Assembly (NCBI GenBank): GCA_030167865.1
Contig: JALAGF010001574.1
Coordinates: 1 to 40,622 of the forward strand
DNA length: 40,622 bases
Origin: Craspedostauros australis
Lineage: Eukaryota
Direction of reading: 5' to 3'
The notes under the pieces are model-generated. The model worked only from the letters and a program-made list of their open reading frames with translations, made no database searches and was not told the origin of the DNA. Positions 2,142 to 40,622 of the stretch are shown one piece after another; the first letter of the stretch is position 1, and the number at the start of each line of letters is the position of its first letter. Position numbers and translations under genes: made by a program.

Positions 2142-2812
2142 ATGCTCGTCAATGCAACCATCAATCCGCGACGGATGTCTAATTGACCATGGCTGTAGAT
2201 GACACAAGCACAAATAGACGCAACGCAGTCGTATTCCACATCCATCTTTAGGCCTTGCTGAATTTGACCGAGTTCTTGTCAAGGTTGGTGTGTCAGTCTT
2301 CGCCATCGTCATCGTCTGCAAAGCGAAACATTCCGAAAGCCGGTTGGAGGCAGAGTATGATCCTTGGCGAGGGGCACAAGAGAGAAGTTGCAGAGGCGTG
2401 TGGCAGGTTCATCCCGATTCCGCCCAGTCAAACAAGATCCACCAGGGATCATTCTCGAAGACTTCTATCCGAAGGCAGATCTTTTCTGGAGATACAGGGA
2501 GGAATTGGAGTGGACTGAGGTTTTGCGCGAACCACAGTTTTTCATTCTACGTTGTATTAGTATTCTACAATACTCTGGGGTTCCACATAAGCATACATAG
2601 TAACATGTAATATGTACATGTAGTGTCACAGATGTTTGGCCACTTGTGCACAGGAAAAGATTGTGGTTGGCTTCCACGTACTCTATGGTGCTGAGCCAAC
2701 GCCGAAATCAAGCAGAGATGGACTCCCCATAATTCGCTCGATCATTCATTTGGGACGGAGGCACCTTGCATTCAACAGCAACAGCAGCAACAGTAGCAGT
2801 AGCAGCACTGCC

Positions 2813-4180
2813 ATGACTTCAACCATCAGCGAAAGCGAACTTCTTGGCGCCGCCCAACACGGGAATCTGGAAACGATCAAGGAGTGGCACCAACAACACC
2901 AACAGACCCAAGTCGACAACATTCGGGATTGGTCCAACAGCACCATCCTCATTTCTGCCTGCTACCATGGCCAGCTGCCCACGATAAAGTACTTGGTGGA
3001 AATGTGCGGGGCAAGTATCGTCTCAGCAAACAAGTACGGAAGCAATGCACTTCACGTAGCCTCCTGGTGTGGTCACTTGAACGTTGTGAAGTACTTGGTG
3101 GAGTCGTGCAGTGCAGATGCGAGCATTCTGAATTTCTCCCGGAACAATGCTCTCCATGACGCATGTTTGCGAGGACACGCGCAGGTTGCGCAGTATCTGC
3201 TGGAAAACTGCGAGGTGCATGTGCTTGACAAGAATAACGGCAATCAAACACCATTGCAATGTGCCATCGATAACGGGCATTCAGGGGTTGTCGAAGTCAT
3301 TGCTCTGCACATGCAAACCACTGTAGAGCAGAATCAAAAGGACGTAAAGAGTGGCCGCAGCAGCGCCAACGCGTCTGATACCACGTCACCAATGAATCAC
3401 ACCAGCGCCAGCATCAACCGAAGCAGACTCGAATCGCTTGCCAGCGGCGATCTGGCCGATATCACATTCCTGGTTGGGCAAGGTGAAGGCCAGCAGTCGA
3501 TCAAGGCGAATAGCGCCATTCTGTTGGCCACGGTGCCGTCCTTGAAGACGATGCTCGACGATGGCATTAAACACCAACCGCAACAGGATCTTCCTACAGA
3601 AACGGCATGCATATGCACATCCACGTCTACGTGCACGATTCTTCTTCCCAACTACACCCCAGCACATGTCCAATACGTTCTGCAATACATTTACGCTGGC
3701 GATTATTCTTTCATCTTCAAGGCGGGGATGGAGCATCAGCAAGAGGTGAAGAGCCTTCTAGTGGTTGCGAACCACTTTGATTGCTTGCAGCTCAGTCTTG
3801 TTCTGGAGCTGCAATTGATCAAGGAGCATCTCCAAGATCAGACGATGGTGGAACTGTTGATATTCGCCGATGTCCATGGCTTCAAGCTGTTGCGGAGCGC
3901 TGCGATCCAGATGGTGGCGGAGGATGCGGACATCTTGCTGGACCATCCGCATTTCTGCAAACTGGTGGAGAAGATCGAGCTGATGGATAAGATCCGATCG
4001 GCTCGGATTGGTGGTGCTGCGAAGCACCGTGCATCTGACATCAACATGTCGATTCTGGAATTGTTCAATTTCTTTGACACGCAAAATTGTTCAGTGTCGG
4101 GAGCGGGAGAACGCTCGCTCATGGAAGCCTCGTTGTTGTCAAAGTGTATGGAAGAAGCGCCACCGAAAGATGAAGACTGA
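2813..4180 (+). CDS. Ankyrin-repeat + BTB/POZ domain protein
   Basis: First real ATG at 2813. About 5 ankyrin repeats (AAQHGNLETIK, ACYHGQLPTIKYLVE, ALHVASWCGHLNVVKYLVE, ALHDACLRGHAQVAQYLLE, TPLQCAIDNGH). BTB motifs ADITFLVG...IKANSAILLA...YVLQYIY, then a BACK-like LLIFADVHGFKLLRSAAI. Confidence 0.9.
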   Translation: MTSTISESELLGAAQHGNLETIKEWHQQHQQTQVDNIRDWSNSTILISACYHGQLPTIKYLVEMCGASIVSANKYGSNALHVASWCGHLNVVKYLVESCSADASILNFSRNNALHDACLRGHAQVAQYLLENCEVHVLDKNNGNQTPLQCAIDNGHSGVVEVIALHMQTTVEQNQKDVKSGRSSANASDTTSPMNHTSASINRSRLESLASGDLADITFLVGQGEGQQSIKANSAILLATVPSLKTMLDDGIKHQPQQDLPTETACICTSTSTCTILLPNYTPAHVQYVLQYIYAGDYSFIFKAGMEHQQEVKSLLVVANHFDCLQLSLVLELQLIKEHLQDQTMVELLIFADVHGFKLLRSAAIQMVAEDADILLDHPHFCKLVEKIELMDKIRSARIGGAAKHRASDINMSILELFNFFDTQNCSVSGAGERSLMEASLLSKCMEEAPPKDED

Positions 4181-12666: not shown

Positions 12667-14764
12667 TCATCTCGCCGCACGTTCGTCCACCACGCTCATT
12701 TCCATCAAACCACTATCACACGACGAATCGTTGTCATCGTCATCGTATTCGTAGACTCGATCATCATCGCTGTCGTCCTCCGATTTTGCATTCTCTGCAT
12801 CTGTTGCGTCAGCTGCGACGTCAGCTGCTGCCTCCGGTGGTTGGCCTTGCTGGGATCCTTTCTGATGACCGATGCCTGGCGATGTCGGCGATCGCGATGA
12901 TGATAGCGACAGCGACGACGAGCAGGAACGTACCGAAGCCTCCATGCCATCGTTCTCCGTGTCGGTTTGCTGCCCGTAGGACAGTGAGCCATCGTCGACG
13001 TCGTTGGCACACAGTGGGCACGTGTCATGATCGATGCTCCATTCTTGCAGACACCGTGCGTGGAACACATGATTGCAAAATGGATCACCAGACCAGCACA
13101 GCTTCCGGCTCTTGCCCCTGCTGCGGCTTGGGTTGCGGCAGACCGCACATACCTGATGCGCGGTCCCACCCATGTCACCTTCGTCACTGACGTTGCCGTC
13201 AATGTCCGATTCCGCAGCAGCCTGCAAGGAACCATGCGTGTAGATACTTTCGGAGCTTATCGTTCGATCGTCCAGTTCCTGTAATGCGCGCGATTCCGCA
13301 CGTCGCAAGATGCTTTCGGCTGCCAGATCTCCCAAATCCAAACTGATGGTGGCTTCGCTGACCAACCTTGGATCGTCGGCATCGTTATCGTTGCTGCTGC
13401 CGCTGCGAGGATGATGTTGCTCGCGATTGTAAGGATGTCGTGACTGTTGCAAGCTCGTCGCAACGCTGTTTATGCGAGAAGCGCTGGCATGCAACCGAGC
13501 GCGCCTTTCACTGTCGGCTTCACGAGTCACCCACTCATGTTCAAGGTTTGCTTCGCTGGTGCGGCTCCAAGTATCCTCTTCAAAACATTCAAGGGGAGTT
13601 CGGCGGCGATGGTTCGATGAAAGCAGATTGATATTCGTCTGCGACGGCTGGCTTGCCGCATTGACTGCACCCTCTTCAGTCTCACCAGGATGCATAACAA
13701 AGTCATCACTGACATCAGCATCGTTGTCATCGTCATCGTCATCATCATTGACTTCATGATCCAGCGAGATGTTGAAAAGTCGAGAAAAGTATGCCCGATC
13801 CTCTTCCAAAGCATCCCGTATCTGAAACAGTGACGACTGCTCCGCTTCGAATTCGTTCTGTGCCGACTGCGACTCGACTTCGGACTCTTCGTCATCGCTC
13901 AACGCCAAGAAGTTCTGTCTGCAGCAGGGACACTGGCTGTGATCAGACAGCCATTGGATCACGCACTGTTTATGAAAGTGATGGTTGCATCGTCGATTGT
14001 GCGACCAGCACACGACATCGTCGAGCTCGTATTCGACGAGACAGATGGGGCAGATCATGTCATCCTCGATGTGGCAAACGATGTCATCGCCTGGTTTGTT
14101 TTCGACGACCAAAGTGATGGGCCGAGTTTGAACTGGCTGGCAAATCGGCGTCAGGGTTGATCTCTGCTGCTGCTGTTCTGGTTGCATTTGTTGTTTGCTA
14201 TCTGCTTGTATCATCTTCTGCTCGCAGCGGTCACAGTCGGATAGATAGCACATTGTCGCCATCATGGAAATAAGTGTTGCGCGATTGGTGAGTGAAGATT
14301 GTTTGCTCGTCAGGACACACGATGACAGAAATGAAATCGACAAGATGCGAGACAGAATGCATATGTGGGTGACCAGAGTACCTCCTCAGATTCCGCCGCG
14401 TGCACGCATACGGACACCGCGCGAGCAAGAGCATGTTGCGTACCTTCGTAATCAACAGATTCGACACAAACTCTTTGCGATCCTCCCTCGCCTCGTCCAC
14501 CAAATTCGATCGATGGCCCAACGCAGACCGTAGCTGCGTGAAGATGATGGTCTCGAAGTTGTCGCCACCCTCCAGATCGACCACGACTTCGATGTTGACG
14601 TTTTCCTCGTCGCCAGAATCGGCGGAGGGGGTCTGTGCTGCATGGCTGCGTCGTCGGCGCAGGTGTATTTCTCGAACGGCGCAGAGGATGGTGAGGGATA
14701 TGAACATCACGATCCACAGAACGATGCTGCTCGCATCGTCCCATGGGCCACAATCCGAGCACAT
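12667..14764 (-). CDS. Transmembrane RING-H2 E3 ligase with two RING domains (2 exons)
   Basis: Exon 1 14764-14444 (TM IVLWIVMFISLTILCAV followed by RRRR). Intron 14443-14218 (AAG|GTACGC...GCAG). Exon 2 14217-12667 is in frame. RING1 CPIC...CNHHFHKQC...W...CPCC at 14052-13921; RING2 CAVC...CNHVFHARC..EW...CPLC at 13149-13009. Confidence 0.85.
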
Positions 14765-15443: not shown

Positions 15444-16742
15444 ATGGTTGCAAGACGAGGATGCCGCAAAGCCGTTCTGACATGGAGCGTTCTGGCCATC
15501 CTATCATTGAGCGTCATCCTTAGCAATCAGAAGTCCTTGCGCGCTGTCTCACAAGCAGGACAACCCTGGCAACCTACGGCAGGCGATCCAGCAGTCCATC
15601 GAGAACCATTGATGCCAACCCAGCCTCCTGCAACTCTGCCTACTCCCGCTACAAAGAATAAGCGTCACCACAAGGCGACCATCGTTGTGCAGCTGTCCGG
15701 TGAGATGGCGAACAATCTGCAGCACATCGCCATTGGCAAAGGATTGCAGTGGTGGTTGCAGGATGAATTCGACATTCGCAGCAACATCATCGTGCGTTCG
15801 TTCGCCATACGCAATCAGGCGGAGAAGCCCACATGGAAGTACGCGAGGACCGCGATCCAATCCTGCTTTCCGCACCTGGCGGATTGGGACTTCAAGGCGG
15901 GCAACGCGCAGGAGTACCTCTTGCGGAACCGGCAGCAGAATGCGTGGAATGAGGGCGATGTCGATGCCATGCAAGGGTTGGTCAACAGCTGGAAGGCGGA
16001 TGAGATTCATCAGGGATTGCGAAAGTTCCGCGATCTGCTGCAGCACCCCACAAGGCCGACGGTGCCTGCCGATGCGATCATCGGGATACCATTCATCTAC
16101 TCGCAGTCGTTGGATCCATATCCCATCATTGATCGGTACTACACGAGATTACGCGATTTCTTCCAATTCAACGACGCGTCTTCCTACTGCTGCGAGAAGC
16201 GGCCCCAGCCAAATGAAAGCGTTCTGCATTTCCGTAACTACCAAAGCGAGCTGGGTGCGAGCAAAGCTTTTCACATGGGATTCCCCGACATCACCCCGGA
16301 TCACACCACAAAGCACATATTTCCGCATGCCACACAAATGAAGACCATCACGATCACGATGGAAAACCCCTCGTCCTCCCGATCCTCGAACCAACCTGCC
16401 GCCGTCGCCATCACCACGCGGATCCCCAATGGCAAGGCCAGAGCCCATGTTGATGCATTGACCAATGCCGGCATCCCATCCCACCTCATTGAGAATCAGA
16501 GCGGCGTGCAAGATTTTTGCTTCCTCAAATCCACCAAGCAGGAGTTGATCGGCAACGCACGTTCAACGTACGTCCTGTGGGCTGGATTGTTGGGAGATCC
16601 CAAGTCGCTGCGTCTCTACCACATCAATTCGAAGGGTCTGCGCGCTCGGCATTCTGACCACTTCATGAACCGCTTCAGCTATAACTTCACGATCGACCAG
16701 TCCCTGCAAAGGAAGGTCCGGTTCGAATTGTATCCAGAATGA
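15444..16742 (+). CDS. Type II membrane GT11-like (alpha-1,2-fucosyltransferase-like) glycosyltransferase
   Basis: ATG at 15444, N-terminal anchor AVLTWSVLAILSLSVILS, Pro-rich stem. Motifs VQLSGEMANNLQHIA (cf. GGLGNQMFQYA), VLHFRNY (cf. HVRRGDY) and DFCFL...RSTYVLWAGLLG (cf. DL.LM...NSTFSWWAAYL). Confidence 0.75.
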   Translation: MVARRGCRKAVLTWSVLAILSLSVILSNQKSLRAVSQAGQPWQPTAGDPAVHREPLMPTQPPATLPTPATKNKRHHKATIVVQLSGEMANNLQHIAIGKGLQWWLQDEFDIRSNIIVRSFAIRNQAEKPTWKYARTAIQSCFPHLADWDFKAGNAQEYLLRNRQQNAWNEGDVDAMQGLVNSWKADEIHQGLRKFRDLLQHPTRPTVPADAIIGIPFIYSQSLDPYPIIDRYYTRLRDFFQFNDASSYCCEKRPQPNESVLHFRNYQSELGASKAFHMGFPDITPDHTTKHIFPHATQMKTITITMENPSSSRSSNQPAAVAITTRIPNGKARAHVDALTNAGIPSHLIENQSGVQDFCFLKSTKQELIGNARSTYVLWAGLLGDPKSLRLYHINSKGLRARHSDHFMNRFSYNFTIDQSLQRKVRFELYPE

Positions 16743-16861
16743 ACACATGCGTCCATGCTTCTCTTTTGAGGTGGACCCAACGTCGAAGATCAACGTCATG
16801 CGACGTAATTCCGTGCAGCCTCATGTCGTCATGCTCTACTAGTACATGCCGCAAGAAACGA

Positions 16862-19800
16862 TCACAGCTCAACTATGGAAGACAATTGTCCATCTTGTCT
16901 CGGGGTTCCACCATCCCCTTGGAATGTCGTGGGTTGATTGCTGATCGACTGATTGTTCGAATTCATTCGCATCGGCACCCCGCCGTTCTGCGACGCGGCT
17001 GATGCAGCGGCAACAGTGGTGGATGGCATCATCATCCCGGGAATCATGTAAGTTAGAGGATGGCTGTTGGCATGTAGATTGTGCATAGCCATCGGGTTGT
17101 TTGCACCTGGAAGGTTGAGCATGAGAGGCGGGGGTGGCTGTGCCTGCGCGTGGTGGCCAACCATTCGCTGCTGATGCTGCTGTTGATGCGGATGCATCGC
17201 TTGAAATGCCGCGGGGTGATGTGGAAGACCGTGAGGAAGCTGTCCTGGAGGCAGAGCATGAGCCAAACCGTGATGCTGCATGGCTGCCGGCATTTGCGGC
17301 GGTTGTGCTGCCGCTTGCGCCTGGGCTCGTGCCTGCGCTTGTGCATGCGCCTGAGCTCGTGCCTGTGCTTGCACATGTTCTTGCGCTCGTGCCCGGGCCT
17401 GTTCTTGTATCGATGGCTGTGGTGGCGGTTGCTGCTGATGCTGCTGCTGTTGTTGGGTTGCCTGTGCGTGCATTTGTAGCTGCGGATGTCTGCTTTGCAG
17501 AATCGGCGAGAGCAGTGTCGCGGCGGGCGGAAGCGTGGGTTGCACTGGGCTCTGCAACGGAGGTGGAGATTTGAGCTGCATCACGCCAGCGATATTGGCT
17601 ATGGTCGCGAGCGAGGATGCCACCTTCGGATTCTGACTCTGCGCCTGCTTCCCAAGGTCCAAGAACCGGCGCACTCGCTCTTCTGCTGGCAGAGACGATG
17701 CAATGATAGACGCTGCTTGCCACGCAAACGGATCCTGCTGTCGCAGCTGCGATTCGTAATTGTTCAGCAACGACATCTGTCCTTGCTGATTCTGCTGTGG
17801 TGTTTCGGTATCTTCGCCGTTGTCTTCTTCGTTCTGCTTCGTCGTCTGTCCTTCGGCAACTCCAGCCACGGGGGATACTCCAGGTGTGGGATCCGGCAGG
17901 TCTTCCAGATTTCTTGTCAACGCCGAGGCATCCGGAATAGACATGGCTGTGGCAGACATAGACGCGTCCTTCGAATCGCCATTGCTCGATAGATCCAATG
18001 AAATGGAGCCATGTGCTGACGAGATTGCCCCTTTGCTTGTTGTCTTCGCCGGTGAGTTAGTGCTTTGGGCTTCTGGGGATGCTATTGACGGGCGTGTCTT
18101 CTTCCGTACCAAGTATTGGCACAACTGCTTTTCCCCTCGTATGAAAAAACCTTGTGGATGACCGTCTGCGAAAGTGTGGTGAGAAGGCAACGATCGTGGC
18201 AACGTGGGAATCATCCGGCATCGCGAGACGTGCAAGAGTTGGTGAGGGATGGCTTGTTGGTCGCTTGGTTGGTTCCTCGGTTCATTCATTCAATGATCAA
18301 GTCGTTGCTGAACTCGTCGCCCTATGCTATGCGGGGCATCAGCGTTACGTGCACGCATACAAATGCACGCATATATATGCACGCGAATGTGTTTGGCAGT
18401 AGTAACAACAAGAGCAATCACATCAACACCAACAGCAGCAGTGACAAGGCGCCATCGCAACTTACAAGAACCTTTGTCCAACCCGCTCGTGTGACGCAGG
18501 AATCCCCAAAGATTGAGCTGACGCGTGAAGGATTTGTAGCTGCGTTGGTTGCTGAACTTCGGCAGCAGCAGTTCCTCCAGTTTGGTCGTGTCGTATGTTT
18601 GGAAACAGTTGCCGGACGGTCTCCATGAGATGATGTCGCTGTATCCGAGTCGATCTGCATTGTCCAGCAGATCGTGCAGCTTGCTGGGGAACAGCGTTGT
18701 GTAGTCATCCGTGATGGGGGCTCTCGGTTTCAATTGCGAGACCGGCATGGTGTTGCTTGGCTTCGACTTGGACTTGCGTTTTTGTGCCGGCTTTGTTTCT
18801 GTGGGCTTTCGCTGTACCAATGTGGGGACCGCGGTCATTGCGTTGCTCTTGTTTGCTGATGATTCACCCTGACCTTGTCGTGCACCTTTTGACTCCTCGA
18901 CATTCGTGATCATATCCGAGAAGCAGTTAGATGCGGCCTCAGCAAACGAATCCATCGCATTTGCTGTCGCTGTGAGCGATTTGCGTTTGGGGGTCTCCTT
19001 TTTCGCTATCAGCATGGCCCTCTCCAGTTTCTGCTTTGTGGCCTGTACGTACAGGTGCGCGAAAATGCAGGCAAGTTGAAGTGGGAGAACGACGGGCGGG
19101 GGCAAGAGAGAGGTGAGCTGTGTATGCATGATGCATGAGATGTCAGAGCGCGATGCTCCGGTTCCAATCGCCGCGTGAAATGAAGCAAATGCACATGGTG
19201 AAACAGTGCGAGTGTTCTACCCGTGGAAAACAAGTGCGGTGGAGCCTCGTCAAGATACAAGCATGCATCGGAGATGAACGGATGCGAGCGCTTACCTGCG
19301 TTACTCGGAATAGCTGGACATGCTGCGGTGTCCGAGGCAGCGGCTTGAAACGAGCGTCGCCTGCGTTGTGAGTACCGCCCAGCATGATATCCGTCAGACT
19401 TTGCGGGTTGCATTGCACCTGATTGGACAGGTAGGTCCGGAGGATGGTGCCTCTGGGAAGATCGAGGAGGCCATCATGGAAGCCTTGCACGAAATGGCGA
19501 ATGAATGCCTGTTCTTCCTTGGAGAAGGATTTCCGCAGCGGGAGATCGCCGACGTTCACGATGCCGTTGAGACGAGGCAAGTTCGGATTCATAAGTGACC
19601 TATTGTGGTGTCCATTCGATGATCGAGAGTTGCGTGCAGCGGGTTTTCTTTGCGCCGCTCTGTTGGAAGAGAACGGCGACGCAAGATTCGTCCTTTTCAC
19701 GTTGTCGTCGTCATCGTCGTCATCGTCGTCGTCGTCGTCGTCCCTGCTATGACTATCACTGTGATCGCCAGCGTTCTGCGTTGCCTTCGCTGTCGCGCGA

Positions 19801-20823
19801 ATTCTCCTTCTTGGCATCGAGCGTGTTGGAAGCTGGGCGGAGTCCTCTTTCTTGATGCTGCAAAGCGCAACGTTGCTGCGACTGACGCTGGCGCTGCTGT
19901 CACTGCCATCATAATCTTCGTCGTCGTCGTCGTCGTCGTCGTCTGGGCTGCTTTGGTGCAATTTCTTCCTGCGCTTGTTGGAAGCAGTTGCCCCATGGTG
20001 GTCGTTGTTTTTGCCTTTGCCATTACGATGCTCATCAAAGTAGTAGAAATCATCCCCCCTCGGCCCGTTCGAGACCGAGCTTCGGGCCCGGCGTAGGCCG
20101 TGGCGTCTCGACTGAGATGCGCCACTGCCTTGATCGTCATTGTCATTGTCACTGTCACTGTTGCTGCTGCTGGATTCGTTGCGGAACCTGCTGACACTGG
20201 TTCTCGCTGTCTTGGGACGTCTGGTCCGATCGATCGTCAACAGCAATGACCTGCGTGACCCGGGGTGGCTTCCATTTGTCAGGTGTTCCTTCGATGGATC
20301 TGACGACCGCTTTTGCGCGGCAGCAACAAACCAATCGATGAGATCATCCTTGATGTCTTCGTTGTCGATGGATTCCTCATCGTACTCCACTGTGTAATGC
20401 CGTCCTCTGTGCGATTTGATGGTTCCGTTGTACCACCGTTTGTTTGGGAAGCGCTGGTGGTTGTTGGAGAGGAGGCGGACGGTAATTAGTGACGAATAAT
20501 TGCATCGACGAGGCGATGGAGGTGCAGGAATTGAAAATGTAGAATATGAAGAATGGGGGCAATTGGATCGTTGAGCTGAGTGGAAGCGACGGATGGGGGC
20601 GGCATACTATATAGTGGAGTAGACAAACAAGGAAACCTGGAGACACCGTAGGAGCAGGCGTTAGAGGACTGACCTTGGCGATTTTGGTCCCGATGGCGTG
20701 CTTCAGCTTGCTGGCGCCGGTCTCTTGCTTCTTCGAATTCAAAGCGGCCACGGCCTTGGGGTCGTCCGGCGTGTCATCCGAGTATCGCACCACCGGCCTG
20801 GACTTGCGTCTTGTTCTCTTCAT
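16862..20823 (-). CDS. Four-exon multidomain transcription factor: Tudor-like + Myb-like helical domain + HSF DNA-binding domain + Q/P-rich tail (~1062 aa)
   Basis: Exons 20823-20674, 20453-19296, 19042-18466 and 18165-16862. Introns GTCAGT..CCAG, GTAAGC..ACAG and GTAAGT..GCAG all keep the frame (3189 nt). HSF DBD: FPSKLHDLL...IISWRPSGNCF...YKSFTRQLNLWGF...GSYGHPQGFFIRG (Tyr codon split by intron 3). The HSF call is strong; joining exons 1-2 to exons 3-4 is less certain. Confidence 0.75.
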
Positions 20824-21221
20824 CTTGGTTGTATTGGAGCGAAAGCAGTTGTTCCTGATGGTTGTGATCAATGGTCGTGATCAATGGTTGTGGTGGTCGA
20901 GTGATGGAGTGAGGAGTGGAAACGTCACTTGAAGGTGTCTCCACTCTCCTCAGCTCTGTTGTTCTCAGGATTCTCCTGCTGCGCCTTGTGAGAATGCAGT
21001 TGGTAGGTGTTGTGTCTGCGCTTGCGCTTGTGTTTGTTCTTGTTCGACGTTTTGGAGAGGACGAATGAGAAGCCCAGTCACGATCGCGCCGATACAACAG
21101 GTGGGAGAGGCGATTGTTTGTGTTGGTGTGCTCTGTTCGTTGTATCCTTGTGCTGGTTGGGGTGTTGGTCGTGGTCGTGGCTGTGGCTGTGGTTGGAAAA
21201 GCACCGCGAACAAGAGAGAGC

Positions 21222-21252
21222 GTCGATGTCGATGTCGATGTCGATGTCGATG
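21222..21252. repeat. (GTCGAT)n hexanucleotide microsatellite, ~5 copies
   Basis: gtcgatgtcgatgtcgatgtcgatgtcgatg, between the divergent HSF-type and SWEET genes. Confidence 0.9.
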
Positions 21253-21793
21253 ATGTTTGCCTTGGAAGGTGAATCAACAACGAAGGTGAGATGAGGTGTG
21301 ACGTGCTGTGTCTTTGTCGACCTCTGCCATCCTCCATTCATCACGAACGAGATGATGATCTGTTGTTTGGAGTAACATTGCTTTGAAAGGATTCCAACGC
21401 CTGCCAGCTGCGTTCACGACCGTTGGCTCTGTGTTCGGCCCTGTGGGTTTTCTGCTGTTGTCGTCTCTTCTTTGTGGCGCGAAACCAACAGGACCCACAT
21501 TTGATTGACTCGACTAAAAGGGCCTAGCGTGTTTCATTGTACGTGAATGAGCGTAGATTCACAAACCGGTTGTGCTTCCTCCACCCACTTTCTCAACAAG
21601 AAGCGGTTTGCCACAAAACAGAGCCATTCCCAAATCAGGAGGATGTCTGTTGTGATGATCCACAACCAACATTGTCATAACACTACAAACCCAAGTTCAT
21701 TCAAGTCAAGTAACAAGGAAGAAGTGGTAGACTGCATTTCCCTCAGACATCTCGGATAGAAGACCATTCTCTCTGCCCCTCTCCCTCTCTCAG

Positions 21794-21815
21794 TCTCTCT
21801 CTCTCTCTCTCTCTC
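21794..21815. repeat. (TC)11 microsatellite just upstream of the SWEET ATG
   Basis: Read directly from the sequence. Confidence 0.95.
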
Positions 21816-21872
21816 AGTACTAGTACAACGATCACGCGTACGTAGCAGAGAGTCCAGTTCAATTCCGCGACC

Positions 21873-23129
21873 ATGGTATCTGCAGCGACCGTCCTTCTCG
21901 AATATGTCTGCCCGGCCTTCGGGATCACGCTGGGCAACATCATGTTCTCGGCAAGTTACAAGGACGTCGTCAAGGCCGTGGAACGCGGTCATCTGGGTGA
22001 CCTCAATCCGACGCCTTGGGCCTTCATGCTGGGGAACTGCGCCGGATGGCTGGGCTATTCCTTCATCATTCAGAATCTCTGGGTCTTTTGGGGCAATGCG
22101 CCGGGATTCCTGCTCAGCATCTGGCTCAACCTCAGCGCTGCCAAGTTGCAGTATCAAGAATCGAGGGCCAAGACGGTGCGCAGGTCCTTCGTGGATTACT
22201 TGGAACGATCGGAGCTGGAATCGAGGGCGATGACGACGTCCTTGATGGAGATGAACAACACAGGCAACCGCATTGGCAGCAACAATGACAACAACAACGA
22301 CAACAACAACAACATTGATACCGAACGGGGCGGCGCGTCTTCCAAGCATACTAGGATCAATGCTGCAGCCATGGAAGAAGGCAGCAGCGATCCGATTCAA
22401 ACCAAACCAACTGCAGACAGCAAAGGCAGCACAACCATCGCGATGACCAACAGCAACGACAATGCAACAACCAGCAACTTCGCAAAGATCGTTTGGGACG
22501 TTACGACGCAGAACATGCAAGTCCCTGCGCCGCATGAAAATGTGGTCCTTGGCATTAGCGTGGTCTGGCTCATCGTCTTCTCCATCGTGGCATTGTTCCA
22601 GCTCGACACCGACACCAGCGAATTGCTCGTTGGCGTCACGGTCAACCTCAATCTCGTCTTCTTCTACGGCGCGCCGCTGTCCACCATCCTGACGGTGCTG
22701 CGGACGCGCAACACGTCCTCCATTCATGTGCTCACCATGATCACCAACACTGCCAACGGTGCCTTCTGGTTCATGTACGGATTGGCCATCCTCAATCCCG
22801 TCATCTTCGTGCCCAACGGGGTGGGCGCGGGGTTGGGCGTCGTGCAGATCGTTCTGTGCGTCATGTTCCCGCGCAGCGGCGCCGTGGATGTTGTTGCAGA
22901 TGGTCACAACGACGACAACGATGCTTTGCAAGACAGCACGGCGAAAGATTCGGGCGATGGGAAGGCATTGCAGCGCGCTGTCGATGAGGAAGAAAGAAGC
23001 ACTGGCAAAGGCGACAGCGGTGACAATGGCGGGAGGGACAATCAGATTGTGGATATGGCCCCAATCGATGATGATGATGATGGTGCTCCTGCTGCTGCCG
23101 CCAATGATGATGATGAATTCGAAGCATGA
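21873..23129 (+). CDS. SWEET: SWEET (MtN3/saliva) sugar transporter with a long insertion between TM3 and TM4
   Basis: Two MtN3 repeats: GDLNPTPWAFMLGNCAGWLGYS...NAPG and FFYGAPLSTILTVLRTRNTSSI...NGAFWFMYGL...IFVPNGVGAGLGVVQ. Seven hydrophobic segments; acidic C-terminal tail. Confidence 0.93.
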   Translation: MVSAATVLLEYVCPAFGITLGNIMFSASYKDVVKAVERGHLGDLNPTPWAFMLGNCAGWLGYSFIIQNLWVFWGNAPGFLLSIWLNLSAAKLQYQESRAKTVRRSFVDYLERSELESRAMTTSLMEMNNTGNRIGSNNDNNNDNNNNIDTERGGASSKHTRINAAAMEEGSSDPIQTKPTADSKGSTTIAMTNSNDNATTSNFAKIVWDVTTQNMQVPAPHENVVLGISVVWLIVFSIVALFQLDTDTSELLVGVTVNLNLVFFYGAPLSTILTVLRTRNTSSIHVLTMITNTANGAFWFMYGLAILNPVIFVPNGVGAGLGVVQIVLCVMFPRSGAVDVVADGHNDDNDALQDSTAKDSGDGKALQRAVDEEERSTGKGDSGDNGGRDNQIVDMAPIDDDDDGAPAAAANDDDEFEA

Positions 23130-25061: not shown

Positions 25062-26695
25062 GATGGAGCTGAATGAAAGCACCTTGTTGGAGTCATTCGT
25101 ATTGACAACACCCAAGAGGCCATAGCATCGCCCACGTTTGACACACAAAATCACTATTGAGCATCTCGAGAAACAGGGCCCAGGAGCGAAGGAGGCGACG
25201 AACGGAGAAACAGTGGGCAGAGTTTTACATGACAAATGAAACCGTTTGTGGAATAGGATGTGTTAGCACGAGTAGAGTCCTCTACGATCTTTGTGTGAGT
25301 GTGCGTTTCATAGTCGTAGTGAAGAGCTGAAAAGTTGTTCACGGTAGTTTCTTGCTCAAAGGTCTGTTCGGGTTCGGACGCGAGGGACCATTTGAACACA
25401 GGAGCGCGAACCTCCTCCTCCACCAGACATGAGGGACAACGGTTGCTGTGCCATTGGCATCGTTCCTGTTTCTGTCATCGTGATTGTGCACACAGAAACA
25501 AACGAAAGACAGGCGAAGAGCGAACAATCACTGCCTCTCTTCTCTCGCAGTGTGATCGACACTGACACACAAATGCGCACACGCCAGCAAACACAAACAC
25601 AATTACAAACACAATTGAGAATACGCACTCTACACTCTGCACTCCAACCGCGAGATCGAGATTACTCCCATTTGGTCTGCCATTGGCGCACTCTCACAGT
25701 CATAGTCGCGCTCCGCAACCAACACAACAAAGAAGAAGTGAAGCCCGTGAACTCCGTTGCATAGCACCAAGGCGACGAACCCTTCTTTTTGGCATCAACT
25801 GCATCATCCGCCACAATAAACCAAATCTGCACAGAGAGTGAGACCTCTACAAACACCTGCACACAACCGCACCATTGCACCCACAAACGCCCCAGACTCC
25901 GCAACAGTCATCACATCGCATCGCATCGCAACACATCCATCAGAAGAGAGCAGAATACAGCATAGCCACTTCTGTGTCGCATTCGGCAAGCGCCCACTTG
26001 CGTCACGTCAACAACCAAAAAGGAGACGGGAAACTCAATCGAAGGCGAAACGCGCCCGTGGAAAGACCCTCCCAATTGCGCGCCACACAGCTTCGCCGCG
26101 GTCTTATCCTCATTCAGCAAGGAGTCGACAGTGGTGTGTGATCGTGGTGTATGTTGAGACATTGTTGTGTTGACAACCACATCGCAACAACTGACGCAAA
26201 CACGATACCCAAACAAGTCGGCGCACAAGAGAGGCATCAAGGAGACGCATCAGCGCCATCAACAGCACCAACAACGACAGTCTGTGAACAGCGAACTCCG
26301 GACAAACCAGGGGACAGTCCGCAACAGGCAACCGCAACCGCAACACCTTGTGTTGCAGCAAACGAAGCCACCTGTCGACTTTGAACCAACGCCGATCCCT
26401 CGAAGACCGCACAGGTACTATCTGCGTACCAGCAGAGAGAACAAAGAGGTAGACACACACACAGAGAGGGGCAGTCGTACGCACAACACTCCGCATGGTA
26501 GTGTGCTGACAACGGACTGCCATACTCTACGAGTGTACCGAACGGATACGCATACATAGTACTCATACGTGCAGTACTCATACTTGGCGACACCGCACCT
26601 TCATTGACGGTGGAAGAGGCAATCAGAGAGGCAGCAGCGGCAGGAGCAGCAGCGTCGAAGGCCACAATACAAGTACTCACTCGTACGCCAAAGAC

Positions 26696-28564
26696 ATGTC
26701 AACGCAATCCCTCAATCCAGCCACGACAAGGCCAGCAACGATGGCAGCCGCCGCGAGGTCCCCCATGACAACGACGGCAGCATCGACTTCGCCAGCTGTA
26801 GCAACAGCACCAACGAAGGACCTCGCTTCCAGCATCCAGATGGCCACTTGCGGGGAATGCAACGCCGCCATCCCAGCTTCTCAAATGGCAACGCACGTGT
26901 CGCAGTATTGTCAAGGACCACCGCGTCGCGTGTCCTCGGAAGCCGGCAGCCACGATGGTCTTCCGCAGGAGGATCAACGCGAGCTGGAACAGCACATCAT
27001 GGATGATCAATCCGCTGCATCGCCGCAGTCTGCCGAATCAATTGCGCACGTTAACACCAGGAACACCATTGGTGTTGCCACCGTCGAATACGATGACGAC
27101 TTTCCTGATGATAGAGCAATTGTGCCGGTTCCTGTGGGTTCCGTTGTCAGTGATGCACATGACGACGTTGATGGTCATGATAACAATGACGCTCAACAGC
27201 AGCAACAACAGCAGCAACAACAACAGTTTAGCCGTACTGCCCGCCCCTTGCATCCACGCGTCCGTCCACAGCCAAGCAACGCAGGGGCTTCTCAGGCATC
27301 CGTATTGTATCGCAGAAATGCATCGCAGCCTCAGGAATCCCTGAGCAGATCGCTGCCTCGAAGCAGCGACCCGCGTCGATCGCATCCCATGATCGGGCCA
27401 TTCGCGACAAACTGCTTGGAATTTCAGGAATGCGTGGAGACATCGGATTCCACCATGGGCGAATCGAGACATGCCGTCGTGCCTGAGCAGCACACCAACA
27501 CGCAGGAATGGTCATGTCCGCAATGCACGCTGCTCAATTCCATGCAGAATGCCATTTGCGAAGTATGCAACTACAACAACCAGGATATCGTCGTTAACAG
27601 CGCGTCGCAGTCCGCCAGAGTTGCGGAACTCACGTTGGACGCGGCGTGGCGTGTGGACTCGTCGATGAGCACGGAGAACGATGCCGCCACAGCGCGCGTT
27701 CTGCAATCCATCATGGACGAAGACAACGCCAGGCACATTACGTTAGATCGGCGATATTCGGAATACACGCCGCCGCAGCCGTCACCTTCGTCGCAGCGCC
27801 GCCATTCCACGACGGACATATCCTTCGCGCGATCGTCCGGCGCGATGGGCGTTGTGGCGTACCCGACACCTCTCGGATCCGATGACTTCGCCTCGTTCGT
27901 GGAAGACGAAGACATGAACACGGAGCCTCAGCCGTGGCAGCAACCCGAGGAGAACGGTCTCCGAGTCACGTCCAACAACAACCAAGAGCCGCAAACATAC
28001 CAGGACGGCGACGACAATGTCAACTCGCAACGTCGTCGGCGATTCCAACCGCGCTCTAGCTACCGCGTTGTGCAACGACGTAGCCACACGGGCGTCCCGA
28101 CAACGATCGTTTCCAGCGGCGATGCCTCCATGCCCACCCACATCGTCAATCCGCAAGGCCGTCACAGCGATCCCTTGCTCAGTCTCATGATCCATGACAC
28201 CTTGAATCGGAACGTCGACACGCGGCACCGCTTCACGAACCAAAACAACAATGTCGATACCAACAGCCCGTTCGAAGAATCCGACGGCTTCGCCTACGAG
28301 GAGATGCTGCTGGCCTACGCCAACATGTCGGAGCAGCTGGGGGCCAGCGAACGTGAAATTCGTCAGCTGCCCACGCAGACCCTCACGGATGTATGCACGC
28401 AGCTGCCGGAGGATGCGCGCGGCTGTCAGATCTGTCTCGAGGACTTTCAGAGCGGCGACCAGCGCAAGGCCTTACCGTGCCTGCACGGATTTCATGCCCA
28501 CTGCGTCGACAAGTGGTTGCGGTCCAATGCCTGCTGTCCCATGTGTAAATTTAGGATCAATTGA
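26696..28564 (+). CDS. RING-H2 E3 ligase with UBZ-like and RanBP2/NZF-type zinc fingers
   Basis: CGECNAAIPASQMATHVSQYC (C2HC); WSCPQCTLLNSMQNAICEVCN (RanBP2/NZF with TL); C-terminal CQICLEDF...LPCLHGFHAHCVDKWL...CPMCK. Confidence 0.92.
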   Translation: MSTQSLNPATTRPATMAAAARSPMTTTAASTSPAVATAPTKDLASSIQMATCGECNAAIPASQMATHVSQYCQGPPRRVSSEAGSHDGLPQEDQRELEQHIMDDQSAASPQSAESIAHVNTRNTIGVATVEYDDDFPDDRAIVPVPVGSVVSDAHDDVDGHDNNDAQQQQQQQQQQQFSRTARPLHPRVRPQPSNAGASQASVLYRRNASQPQESLSRSLPRSSDPRRSHPMIGPFATNCLEFQECVETSDSTMGESRHAVVPEQHTNTQEWSCPQCTLLNSMQNAICEVCNYNNQDIVVNSASQSARVAELTLDAAWRVDSSMSTENDAATARVLQSIMDEDNARHITLDRRYSEYTPPQPSPSSQRRHSTTDISFARSSGAMGVVAYPTPLGSDDFASFVEDEDMNTEPQPWQQPEENGLRVTSNNNQEPQTYQDGDDNVNSQRRRRFQPRSSYRVVQRRSHTGVPTTIVSSGDASMPTHIVNPQGRHSDPLLSLMIHDTLNRNVDTRHRFTNQNNNVDTNSPFEESDGFAYEEMLLAYANMSEQLGASEREIRQLPTQTLTDVCTQLPEDARGCQICLEDFQSGDQRKALPCLHGFHAHCVDKWLRSNACCPMCKFRIN

Positions 28565-30216: not shown

Positions 30217-30869
30217 GGTGTCCTTAATGATCGGTTGAGTGGAGCATTGGTAGTCAGAAGCCAGTGATGCTGATGCTGATGCCAAGCCCGGCAAAGGAGA
30301 TGGACGTAAAGAAGACAATGCGATCCAATGCAATAACACTACTAAGTACGATATGATGTGATGTGAATTGCCACGATGCATTCGCAATCGCCAACAATGA
30401 GATTGCGACAACGCGACACAGAGGAACAGCACACAGTGATGCAGTAGTCACATGGAACAACAGCATCAGCGGAAAGCGGCGAGCGAACGAAACGGGTTCT
30501 ACCACGCCAACTGCGCCACCCAGAACAGAGACACCTGAATTTAACGTTTTCTTCAACGATGATATCCGTGACACCGTTTACCCGTGAATGGACCACATGG
30601 ATTCAACAAGCTCGAGGATTCGTCACAACGTCAGTCTCGCGACGATCCTTTCGCGATGAAATCCATCAACGGCACAAGAGTAGCGGCTGTGGCGCATCTG
30701 AACCCACAATGGAACGGCCGCACACATGACATCAACAATGGATCGGCACCTCGATCCTCGCACAACCCAATTTGATCATCAATCCATTAGTTGCACCATC
30801 CCAAAAGTGCAATCTACGATTCCAAAGAGCAATATTATAGTACGCACAAATAATATTCTACAATTCACC

Positions 30870-31598
30870 ATGCCGAGCCAAAGATCATCGGCACTCGCCG
30901 TGCTCCTGCTGAGCCTCGCCGGCAGCGACGTGACGGCCTTCCAGACCGCCCAACAGCACAGCCGCCCAACATCGGCGCTCTCCGCACAATCCAACGACCA
31001 AATCACGCGCAAGCAATGGATGACAACGGCATTTGGTCTCGTCACGGCCGCGACCACCATGCCGCAGGCCGCATTCAGCCAAACCTCCATCACCAAATGC
31101 AACACGGCGAGCAAGGCACCCTGCGTCTCGACGGCCAACGTCAAGAACCTCGAATTCTACCTCCCACCGTGGACCTACGGCGACGACGTCTCGGCCGACC
31201 AGGTCATGGCCAAGCTGAAGGCCGCCATCCTCGCGGCCGACACGACGGCCGACATCCAGCAGCAGGAAGGGTCGGCCTACCTCAGGGTGCAGAACAAGCG
31301 CAACGATCTGTTCCAGACCGTCGATGAGACGGAGTTCGCCATCAACGACGTCGACAAGGTCGTCACGTTCCGGGCCTCGACCATCAACAGCGAGAAGACG
31401 GATTTCGGCCTCAACAAGAAACGTCTCACGGAGATTCGAAAACGCGCGGGGATCTTTGGCATCATGGGCGAAGGCATGAATTCGGCGGATAGCGTGAGTC
31501 AGAATGCGCGCGGCAATGGACCGCTCGGGCAGCTCAAGGCGTTTTATGGTCTACAGAGCGGAGCGGGATTCGAAGATGTGGTGTTGGATAAATACTAG
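30870..31598 (+). CDS. Plastid-targeted (probably thylakoid-lumen) DUF1499-family protein
   Basis: ATG at 30870. Signal peptide ending VTA|FQ (ASAFAP-like), S/T-rich transit peptide, TRKQW + hydrophobic stretch + AFS. DUF1499-like PCVST...PPWTY...VDETEF...VTFRAS...DFGLNKKRL. Confidence 0.8.
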   Translation: MPSQRSSALAVLLLSLAGSDVTAFQTAQQHSRPTSALSAQSNDQITRKQWMTTAFGLVTAATTMPQAAFSQTSITKCNTASKAPCVSTANVKNLEFYLPPWTYGDDVSADQVMAKLKAAILAADTTADIQQQEGSAYLRVQNKRNDLFQTVDETEFAINDVDKVVTFRASTINSEKTDFGLNKKRLTEIRKRAGIFGIMGEGMNSADSVSQNARGNGPLGQLKAFYGLQSGAGFEDVVLDKY

Positions 31599-33371: not shown

Positions 33372-34856
33372 CTAGCCAGCTCTAGGCTTCGCTCGTCTCG
33401 ATTTGTTGCGAAACGTCATCGCCACCTTCTCCCGGGCCGCCGTGTCCGACACCTCCATCCACCAATCCCCGGATGGATCGCGCTTTAGGAATCGACCGCC
33501 ATTGGCCCGGATGATCTGCACTACCTCATGGGTGATCTTCGTCTTTTGCGTGCGGTTGGCGGCATTCAAGTGCCGTTCTTGATACGTCGCCACGATCTCG
33601 GTCAATTTCACATTACCCATGTAGCTCTGATACGGCCATCCTCGGCCCAGCACGATATCGTTCGGCCCGGGCCGTTGGATACAATCCTCGGGCTGCGAAG
33701 GGTCCTTCGCGCGCAAGTTGGCATCATCTCGCATCATGCATTCCTCCATGTGCTGCCGGATAGCATCCTCCTTGGATTGCCCGTTGACATCGAACGGTAG
33801 ATCCTCGGGACGGATCCCGTAGGCCGCCAGCTCGTAGATGCATTCCATCGTCGAACCGAAATGCGTCTTGGTGCGCAACCTCAACGCCTTGGGCATCGCC
33901 GCCTGCAGCACGGAGAATATGGGGCGCACGCGCACATCCTCGAAGAAGAAATGGACGCCGGCAAACCGGATCGGCATGATGTTCAAGATGTCCCATTTGG
34001 CCACACCGGCGCCTTCGTAAAACTTGGTCCTCATGGCATGAATCGTCATGGCGACCACCACGATGCCGCGTCGTTGCTGCTCAGGGCTGTACGTGATGTT
34101 TTCGTTGAGGTACCACAGGGCCTGCACGTGCGACTTGACGGATCGGTACCGCCAGTTGGCGTAGACATCGAAGATGATGACGCGGCCGGACCGATCGGCC
34201 GTGGTTTCGTACATCTGCTGCGCACCGTTTTTCAGGGATTCGTGGGCGTCGGGGGGCAGATCGCTCAGCACGATAGGTGCCACCAACTTTTCCTCTCCGA
34301 ACAGAATCAGCTTCGTCTTGAAATACTTGAAGATCTTGTTCGCCGCCGCCGGCACGTCCCATTCCGTGGAGCGCAGGAACTGCAAACGCCTCTGTTCGTC
34401 TTTGACGTACCGTGGCGATAAGAACTGCGCGCGGTCGTAGACATCCTTGCGTCGCGCTGATTTGATGTAGGCGTCCAGCTCCTGCAACCGCGCCGCCACC
34501 ATCTCTGGCGTTTCCTCGATTTGCGGCGACACGCCGTGCACATCTTCGTAGACGCGTTCGCGTTCCATCAGGCTCAAGGATTTGAAATCATCCGCAGTTA
34601 CCTGCTCACCGTGCGTGAGAGATGCCGTTGAGTCCACGGTGGCATCGCGCTTGGAGAAGCCTGGGATACATCCATCGCAGCACATGGATTTGTTGCCGAT
34701 GGCGCAGATCTGGGATGGTGAGGATGAAGTCGAAGTCGAAGTCGAAGACAACGGTGATGCTGCGCGGTTGGGTTCTTCGGCGAGAGTCCCGATTTTGTTC
34801 GGAGGGGAATGCGGCTTCGTCCATTCTGCATCGCTGTCGTCCCACTGTCGTTTCAT
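33372..34856 (-). CDS. Diatom-type CRAL-TRIO/Sec14-like + C-terminal DUF6824 protein
   Basis: ERERVYEDVHG, RLQFLRSTEWDVPAAA, DRSGRVI and MPIRFAGVHF (Sec14-like). PGPNDIVLGRG...GN...GGRFLK...WMEVSDTAAREKVAMTFRN (DUF6824). Confidence 0.88.
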   Translation of the reverse strand: MKRQWDDSDAEWTKPHSPPNKIGTLAEEPNRAASPLSSTSTSTSSSPSQICAIGNKSMCCDGCIPGFSKRDATVDSTASLTHGEQVTADDFKSLSLMERERVYEDVHGVSPQIEETPEMVAARLQELDAYIKSARRKDVYDRAQFLSPRYVKDEQRRLQFLRSTEWDVPAAANKIFKYFKTKLILFGEEKLVAPIVLSDLPPDAHESLKNGAQQMYETTADRSGRVIIFDVYANWRYRSVKSHVQALWYLNENITYSPEQQRRGIVVVAMTIHAMRTKFYEGAGVAKWDILNIMPIRFAGVHFFFEDVRVRPIFSVLQAAMPKALRLRTKTHFGSTMECIYELAAYGIRPEDLPFDVNGQSKEDAIRQHMEECMMRDDANLRAKDPSQPEDCIQRPGPNDIVLGRGWPYQSYMGNVKLTEIVATYQERHLNAANRTQKTKITHEVVQIIRANGGRFLKRDPSGDWWMEVSDTAAREKVAMTFRNKSRRAKPRAG

Positions 34857-35584
34857 TGTGTGTACTGCTGTGAGTGATGGAGTAGGAGTAGAGAGTGTTT
34901 GGTTGGTTTGGTTTGGTTTGGTTTTGTGGGTTGTTGCTGGTTGCTGTTGATGCTGTCGATAATGCCGGCATCAACACTGATGTCTGTTTTGATGCGCCGA
35001 TGCTGTTATGACTCTCCAACCAAGGAAGAGGTGGCTCGACGAAACTGTTTTGCCGCTCCGGTATTACCGAGAATGTCAATCCTTGCCAAGTCGATCAGCG
35101 GGGACCGACTTTGGGAGAAAGGATGCTCGTCTCCGTCGATGAAACAGTGATTGGTTACGCGCTATTGATGCAGACGCTCACAACTGATGCTCTTGGGTCG
35201 AGCTCGGATGTCGAGGAATGTGAATCAAGTATAGTGGTACAAGGTGCGAGTACGAGCGCGAGTATGGCATGAAAGTGCAGCCGACAGAACACAACATGAG
35301 AATGGTATCTTGTAGACTACTTGATGCGCGCTGTTAGTGCCTTCGCAGACGTTTTGGTTATGTTCTCTTGTTGCGACAAGAAATGATGGCTCCCAGAACG
35401 TCAAAGAGTACTCCGCAGGATCGATGTCGCAGCAAACCGGGATATGTATGAAACCGTTGAAACGGCGTTACACGATAGACGCCACTACCAATCATGGACA
35501 ACACAGCAATGAGACAACAGCACTGACGCATACGACATCGATAAGACTCATAATCTGCATCTTTACTCTTTTTCACTCTAAATC

Positions 35585-40500: not shown

Positions 40501-40622
40501 CTCCAACAACATATCTGGGATCCACCATCTCACAATTCCACCTCACTGCCGATCCGTCACGTCCCAAATGGAGCATGGGCTCACAAGAATACATCAAATC
40601 CGCTCTCAAGATTGTCACCAAA
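37584..40622 (+). CDS. pol: Retrotransposon Pol (protease, integrase, chromodomain-like region, reverse transcriptase), 3'-partial
   Basis: Translated by hand: 1013 stop-free codons in the gag frame. Protease ELDSHADT (D at 37656). Integrase D 38412 (LYADT), D 38580 (DNAKE), E 38685 (QNKAE). RT motifs KARLVAGG, DVQNAYL, ALYGLKSSG and YTDD (40407-40418). In-frame ATG at 37620. Confidence 0.95.

Follow-up and report, generated by a model that had tools for sequence, protein, structure and literature searches.

A predicted heat shock factor gene with two N-terminal accessory modules in Craspedostauros australis

Introduction

Fungal Skn7-type factors carry an HSF-like DNA-binding domain fused to a C-terminal response-regulator receiver, so that the HSF-type domain is the DNA-binding head of a multi-domain regulator. 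Here, we describe a predicted gene that resembles this arrangement in a stretch of DNA of 40,622 nucleotides (nt) from Craspedostauros australis (assembly GCA_030167865.1, contig JALAGF010001574.1, positions 1 to 40,622 of the forward strand), which is referred to as the window. The gene would encode a heat shock factor (HSF)-type transcription factor that bears two accessory modules, one Tudor/Agenet-like and one helical. In the window gene, the additional modules are of other kinds and lie N-terminal to the HSF-type domain.

HSFs are the largest family of transcription factors in diatoms, with 34% of factors and 67 HSFs in Phaeodactylum tricornutum (PMC4827209); the initial annotation of the window had also described diatom HSFs as expanded. 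PtHSF2 of P. tricornutum is described with an HSF domain only, at residues 89-188 (PMC11986044). Fusions of HSF with PAS are described in the haptophytes Emiliania huxleyi and Tisochrysis lutea (PMC4827209), and they provide a precedent for algal HSF domains that have been combined with a further domain for sensing or contact. The accessory domain is PAS in the haptophytes, whereas in the window gene, which belongs to another lineage, it would be a Tudor/Agenet-like module together with an unnamed stramenopile helical domain. Compared to diatom HSFs, the window protein has about 550 residues before the HSF domain, in which the two extra modules lie.

Results

A four-exon gene model on the minus strand

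All exons and introns of the HSF-type gene are on the minus strand, and all coordinates are those of the whole window (Table 1). A scripted join of the four exons gave a coding sequence of 3189 nt, with 1062 codons plus TGA and 0 internal stops. The initial annotation had joined four open reading frames (ORFs) through three canonical introns, and the splice sites and peptides that it named are present in one open frame of 1062 codons. The ATG at 20823 is the first one past an in-frame stop at 20880. When the possible joins were enumerated, 41 stop-free combinations of ATG, GT and AG gave exon 2 a start, and in-frame GT..AG joins taken alone are at chance level. Since the arithmetic of the joins is unremarkable, the case rests on independent evidence, junction by junction.

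Codon usage was scored as log-odds per codon after training on six other ORFs of the window. All four exons were positive (+0.06 to +0.40, with exon 1 at +0.40, exon 2 at +0.22 and exon 3 at +0.21), and the four segments obtained by reading through introns 1 and 2 were negative (-0.06 to -0.23). The segment of intron 3 scored +0.11, but it was read out of register, which makes this value uninformative. The HSF domain and the helical domain each occur in one copy within the window. Taken together with the evidence given below, these results suggest that the locus is probably a single minus-strand gene of four exons encoding an HSF-type transcription factor of 1062 residues with two N-terminal accessory modules.

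The HSF DNA-binding domain is completed across intron 3

Exon 3 alone matches the Pfam family HSF_DNA-bind (PF00447) with 51 bits against a cutoff of 22 (E-value 2.2e-13), and the match covers profile positions 1-65 of 100. After splicing, the winged-helix domain of the HSF type is complete at residues ~554-653 of the model. When the spliced model was compared with HSF homologues by blastp, seven of the eight alignments reached residue 653-718, which is past the exon 3/4 junction (628/629) and at least 25 residues into exon 4, while the alignment of the eighth homologue ended at 619. For example, ..GLDKGSY/GHPQGFFIRGEKQL.. across the junction (marked by the slash) was aligned with ..GLDGGAYYHE--LFLRGRPYL.. 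of a homologue. The consensus of the HSF recognition helix is SF.RQLN..GF, and the helix SFTRQLNLWGF is intact in the window protein, with the same letters in the printed alignments of homologues P0153, P0154 and P0155. Exon 4 has no Pfam match, and this includes the region where a heptad-repeat oligomerisation part would sit.

We then used contigs from Logan for X1, the only public sequencing run found, whose kind is guessed. Four of its five aligned pieces are at least 99% identical to the window. One contig matches 18020-18165 without a mismatch and continues for 11 loose letters, which are the reverse complement of the last 11 nt of exon 3; further contigs cover 16500-17134 and 17146-17329 on the exon 4 side. 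The loose end falls short of the 31-letter rule for calling a bridge. However, an exact match of 11 letters placed precisely at the junction of the model is unlikely to arise by chance. We therefore take intron 3 as shown, with at least one sequenced molecule from which it had been removed, and exon 4 as present in this run. Of the three introns, this one has the best support, and the profile match that ends with exon 3, the homologue alignments that run on and the 11-letter end all agree with the initial annotation, in which the HSF domain spans this intron. Taken together, these results show that an intact HSF-type DNA-binding domain sits in the expressed and spliced exon pair 3 and 4, with the kind of the run being a guess.

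Exon 2 carries a degenerate copy of a stramenopile helical domain

When the 107 residues at the end of exon 2 were searched by phmmer in a library of 1.84 billion representatives, 284 matches had an E-value of 1e-3 or below, of which 16 were at 1e-10 or below. The best genuine match has an E-value of 3.8e-15, and family matches are 29-40% identical to the window copy; no match to the helical domain in the representative library exceeds 40% identity. The top match (P0002), a bacterial MucBP repeat protein, was rejected as a spurious match in multiple stretches. The family has the consensus LRxGKWTxEEEAYxxxVIxxFxxGxLDxPAGTTLRxYLSEKLxCDPMRITKKFxGxxxIGKRxFxP, which equals nearly letter for letter the stramenopile motif that the initial annotation had given. 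It is found in hundreds of 50%-identity clusters from oomycetes, eustigmatophytes, chrysophytes and diatom-like sequences. The named members come from Pythium oligandrum (TMW59411.1), Nannochloropsis gaditana (EWM26570.1) and Chlorochromonas danica (EukProt), which indicates that the family is stramenopile-wide. In addition, the window copy has an Atlas score of 0.92 against a eukaryotic cluster of 759 members without a common Pfam family.

The window copy keeps all 11 invariant columns of the family alignment A2 (E34, E35, F46, G49, L51, L59, R60, L63, C69, P71 and G86), an alignment that by construction includes this copy. Several near-invariant residues are lost, namely GKW, M72, R73, I74, T75, K76, K78, F79 and K87 in A2 numbering. 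The copy has K-SF for GKW, CNPQSLTDIM at C.PMRITKKF and AGD with D for the K of IGK. The motif end that had been read as decayed is indeed replaced, with QSLTDIM in the place of MRITKKF.

The description of this domain as Myb-like is not established, since the window copy matches 0 Pfam families at E-values up to 1, and only one of 46 members matches Myb_DNA-binding, with an E-value of 0.16. The AlphaFold model of the 107-residue query, built on a 46-row alignment, has a mean predicted local distance difference test (pLDDT) score of 72.5, with helices at 33-48, 59-67 and 71-78 plus a fourth, and the helical core has a pLDDT of 85-88. Searching with this model in Foldseek gave no match at E-values of 1e-3 or below, and the family profile had 0 matches by sequence among solved structures (PDB) at E-values up to 10. 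It is fair to describe the domain as a predicted three-helix fold resembling a helix-turn-helix. Pfam was also scanned with the 150 best family matches (40 at E-values up to 0.01 and 110 at up to 1e-4), and none of them has a family that covers the helical domain. Above the Pfam cutoffs, the scanned proteins had matches only in the spurious P0002 and in P0010 from an oomycete, the latter with a Crinkler N-terminal domain. Members of the family hold one to three domain copies, with two or three in some of them (e.g. P0003-P0007).

The family has a conserved intron position. The pattern ..PMRITKKF..GKRVF.P..[AS]Q was matched by 98 of 149 family sequences. After the Q of this pattern, 13 of the 98 continue with [ATSG]ELxxLERRWRRRLE, and the other 85 continue with V and unconserved sequence. 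Among these 85, two have an in-frame insert of 16-20 residues followed by the helix, four have the helix in a shifted frame, and 79 end after a short stretch with a median of 16 residues. Together, these continuations are what a conserved phase-0 GT intron leaves when it is read through in gene calling. Because gene callers read into this intron, most database entries of the family are truncated after ..KAQ.

A Tudor/Agenet-like module would be completed by exon 1

Exon 2 alone matches Agenet (PF05641) with an E-value of 0.0012 and 19.7 bits against a cutoff of 27, over profile positions 16-51 of 61. Exon 1 would supply the absent first 15 positions of this profile, with ..IGTKIAK as the proposed first strand. 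In the frame of exon 2, there is no ATG from the upstream stop at 20606 to the Agenet-like match, and an upstream exon is thus needed. Among the listed alternatives, the donor after ..IGTKIAK is the only one that combines a GTNAGT-type donor with a strand-like segment directly before RFPNKRWYNG. Exon 1 alone has no Pfam match. In this model, exon 1 would supply the start codon, a basic N-terminus that resembles those for nuclear targeting and the first strand of a small Tudor/Agenet-like barrel.

The Atlas look-alikes of this module, all with scores below 0.9, include Tudor-knot, Tudor_3, Tudor_5, Agenet and PTM_DIR17_Tudor clusters at 0.78-0.81. When exon 2 residues 1-55 were modelled in AlphaFold from the single sequence, the result was one beta hairpin (7-13 and 19-25) followed by a helix, with a pLDDT of 66.7. 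The aromatic residues of the Tudor-like part are F, W, Y, Y and Y. Comparing the 80 Tudor-like residues with solved structures gave only chance-level rows, with E-values of 0.4 or above. The likeness to the Tudor/Agenet royal-family readers thus consists of an Agenet match below the Pfam cutoff and of recurring Tudor-family Atlas clusters. The Tudor-like barrel of the initial annotation is not established by these scores, and we regard this part as probably a putative royal-family barrel.

One gene or two at intron 2

Whether the HSF domain and the N-terminal modules belong to one protein is decided at intron 2. Exon 2 ends with ..VTQ and is followed by GTAAGC, and exon 3 begins with ATKQKLERAM. 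The initial annotation had proposed that the trailing helix of the helical domain spans this intron (TQ/ATKQKLERAM). The junction is Q/A as in the family, and Leu-Glu-Arg is at +6 to +8, with an offset equal to that in the 13 spliced members. With a profile built from 24 spliced members, the spliced model scored 60.2 bits and aligned without a gap over positions 5-99. The unspliced read-through scored 54.6 bits with the same profile and ended at position 82, and exon 3 alone scored nothing. The acceptor at 19042 ranks first among the 43 AG sites in the 829 nt after the donor, with +6.0 bits; the second, at 19033, is in the same frame and has +4.2 bits. The gapless alignment, the best acceptor and the family's intron position all bear out the proposed helix. 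Since the trailing helix spans intron 2 and the donor is at the conserved intron position of the family, one gene is the better reading. There is strong reason to join exon 2 to exon 3, and we consider one gene likely rather than two.

Several results weigh against this reading. Junction 2 brings a modest gain in profile score: +6.0 bits are also attained by 38 of 1000 shuffled versions of the 20-residue continuation and by 4 of the 1042 windows taken from the protein, a count that includes the true window and an overlapping one. RNA evidence across intron 1 or 2 is absent from X1, whose contigs have no cover on exons 1-3 and no called joint and say nothing about these introns. Intron 1 has 40 arithmetic alternatives, and the Agenet match is below its cutoff. 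Exon 3 also has two in-frame Met codons, at model residues 446 and 465, from which an HSF-only protein could start. All eight long HSF relatives found are HSF alone, and 0 of the 150 scanned helical-family matches carry HSF, although many of these are truncated at the intron. Finally, no orthologue was found in the searches described below.

Some of these results would also favour two tandem genes, the first (exons 1-2) ending by read-through at 19145-19143 and the second (exons 3-4) being an ordinary diatom HSF that starts at a Met in exon 3, a class that is numerous (67 in P. tricornutum; PMC4827209); the fused protein would then not exist. The occurrence of HSF alone in the eight long relatives, the lack of HSF in the 150 family matches, the two Met codons and the lack of a transcript over junction 2 are all consistent with such a pair. 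However, the first gene would then miss the conserved trailing helix, although this helix is intact directly after a canonical acceptor, with frame and register kept, and the donor after exon 2 is at the conserved intron position of the family. Reading through intron 2 adds 50 low-scoring residues before the stop, and the codon log-odds of this peptide are negative (-0.07 and -0.08 in two segments). In addition, only about 130-180 nt separate the read-through stop at 19143 from the first possible start codons of an HSF gene, which leaves little space for a 3' end and a promoter. Two genes are therefore an unlikely arrangement.

We also considered one locus with two products, in which a long fusion transcript exists and the main functional product is a short HSF-only isoform from an internal start in or near intron 2. 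The in-frame Met codons soon after the acceptor at 19042 would permit this. The X1 contigs, which lie only on exon 4 and on one upstream repeat, are compatible with it but uninformative, and positive support was not found; we hold it to be improbable. Of the fused factor in the initial annotation, the HSF domain, the helical domain and the helix across intron 2 are supported, and introns 1 and 2 are predicted.

A fourth explanation is that the gene is a recent product of exon shuffling in decay. The protein would then work as an ordinary HSF behind a long N-terminal extension that is inert, and the helical and Tudor-like modules would be functionless relics. The loss of near-invariant residues from the helical domain, the sub-threshold Agenet match and the lack of an orthologue in our searches fit with decay. 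However, the N-terminal arm is open for 436 codons with positive codon log-odds, the invariant A2 columns, counted with this copy in the alignment, are all present, and the helical core is modelled with high pLDDT. We consider decay very improbable, and the single four-exon gene remains the preferred reading.

Comparison with related proteins

Diatom and stramenopile HSFs, of which the closest come from MMETSP and Thalassiosira (P0153-P0155, one Thalassiosira exigua hypothetical protein), are 41-47% identical to the window protein over ~100 residues of HSF_DNA-bind. They have the SFTRQLNLWGF helix and the G.D.G.Y...F.RG wing region in common with it. The wing of the window protein differs by a two-residue insertion, with YGHPQG in place of YYHE. 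The proteins of the unnamed stramenopile domain share the phase-0 intron position and the trailing L-E-R helix with the window copy and have no Pfam domain, whereas the window copy lacks GKW and MRITKK and is followed by an HSF domain.

The search for an orthologue gave no match for exon 2 among longer proteins, none for exon 2 residues 1-60 among proteins of near length, and only eight distant HSFs for exon 3 among longer proteins. Two scans of metagenome contigs gave 275 and 192 pattern matches, of which 0 were confirmed. A second example of the architecture was not found in these searches, but most family entries are truncated at the intron. No literature was found that links diatom HSFs to Agenet or Tudor, with the limit that such architectures may be listed in supplementary tables of HSF domains. 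No paper in the full-text literature was found to print the helical-family motif, and the 12 motif matches obtained were unrelated peptides. The initial annotation had taken the chimera to be undescribed; no such architecture was found, and the statement holds for the searches that were run.

Other features of the window

The HSF gene is flanked by a divergent ORF of the SWEET/MtN3 type and a convergent ORF of 453 codons (Table 1). The ~1 kb between the HSF gene and the SWEET ORF (20824-21845) contains CATCGA-type and CAC-rich simple repeats, and a 31-nt repeat piece from X1 aligns at 21222-21252. One X1 contig (16500-17134, running beyond 16500) spans the 3' ends of both convergent genes, which suggests that their 3' regions may overlap. 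At 16977, the X1 contig has C where the window has A on the plus strand, which changes the coding GTG to GGG and Val to Gly in the low-complexity tail (..QNGGVPMR..). This difference is likely an allele or strain variant. DUF6824, which is typical of diatoms, is found at the end of another ORF. With its spliceosomal introns, this DUF6824 protein, a Copia-type element and HSF relatives that are closest in MMETSP and Thalassiosira, the window has a eukaryotic and diatom-like character.

Table 1. Features of the HSF-type gene and of the surrounding window (coordinates of the 40,622-nt window)
Feature	Position	Strand	Description
Exon 1	20823-20674	-	50 codons; ATG 20823-20821; basic N-terminus MKRTRRKSRP; ends ..IGTKIAK
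Intron 1 (predicted only)	20673-20454	-	220 nt; GTCAGT..CACCAG; phase 0
Exon 2	20453-19296	-	386 codons; Agenet/Tudor-like part first and stramenopile helical domain last, separated by a long acidic/Ser-rich low-complexity linker
Agenet/Tudor-like match	20328-20438	-	RWYNGTIKSHRGRHYTVEYDEE..; exon 2 residues 6-42; Pfam PF05641
Helical domain 'RGKWT...PMRITKKF', degenerate copy	19296-19532	-	Model residues 358-436
Intron 2	19295-19043	-	253 nt; GTAAGC..GTACAG; phase 0; decides between one gene and two
Exon 3	19042-18466	-	577 nt; trailing helix, then basic/Ser-rich linker, then first two thirds of HSF DNA-binding domain (from 18691)
Trailing helix of stramenopile domain	18995-19042	-	ATKQKLERAMLIAKKE; gapless on family profile positions 84-99
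Intron 3	18465-18166	-	300 nt; GTAAGT..TCGCAG; phase 1; Tyr codon split
Exon 4	18165-16862	-	1304 nt; last third of HSF domain (18165-18092), then ~410-residue Gln/Ala/Pro/His-rich tail; TGA 16864-16862
ORF of 453 codons	15381-16742	+	No Pfam family; convergent with HSF gene, ends 120 nt from its stop codon
SWEET/MtN3-type sugar transporter ORF	21846-23129	+	E-value 1.5e-19; divergent from HSF gene
Ankyrin-repeat and BTB protein ORF	2624-4180	+	
ORF with two RING fingers	12667-14385	-	
C-terminal RING-H2 protein ORF	26510-28564	+	
DUF1499 protein ORF	30702-31598	+	
ORF ending in DUF6824	33372-34970	-	E-value 9.3e-23
Copia-type reverse transcriptase ORF (RVT_2)	37584-40622	+	E-value 1.8e-17; open at window end; retrotransposon fragment or copy

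Discussion

Fusions of HSF with accessory domains are already known in algae, and the combination of a Tudor-like module, a helical domain and an HSF domain would be a variant that was not found elsewhere in the searches run. The helical family lacks a Pfam model and a solved relative, and full-text searches did not turn up a mention of it, which makes it a candidate for an undescribed family of regulators.

If the single four-exon gene is correct, its parts may work as follows. From knowledge of the families, the HSF domain would bind DNA sequence-specifically at nGAAn-type elements, and the tail rich in Gln, Ala, Pro and His could be a disordered region for activation or condensation. The N-terminal arm would carry the two accessory modules. 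Because the helical copy has lost GKW and the basic residues of MRITKK and the K of IGK, a protein-contact module is likelier than a second DNA binder. As a speculation, the factor could be anchored through its Tudor-like module to methylated chromatin or to a partner protein. A wider possibility is that the RGKWT/PMRITKKF module represents a class of helix-turn-helix domains for DNA binding or chromatin contact that is new and occurs across stramenopiles. The window gene would then be a chimera specific to its lineage, with an HSF head that is steered to particular chromatin states by a Tudor-type reader of methyl marks and a neutralised copy of the module, and it would count as a hybrid of reader and transcription factor within the expanded HSF family of diatoms; we put this forward tentatively and think it rather unlikely.

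The functional diversification of HSFs in diatoms is largely unexplained. If an HSF does bear N-terminal modules that are reader-like and partner-like, this would mean that the expansion of this family proceeds also by domain shuffling, and such a gene would be a handle for linking chromatin state to HSF targeting.

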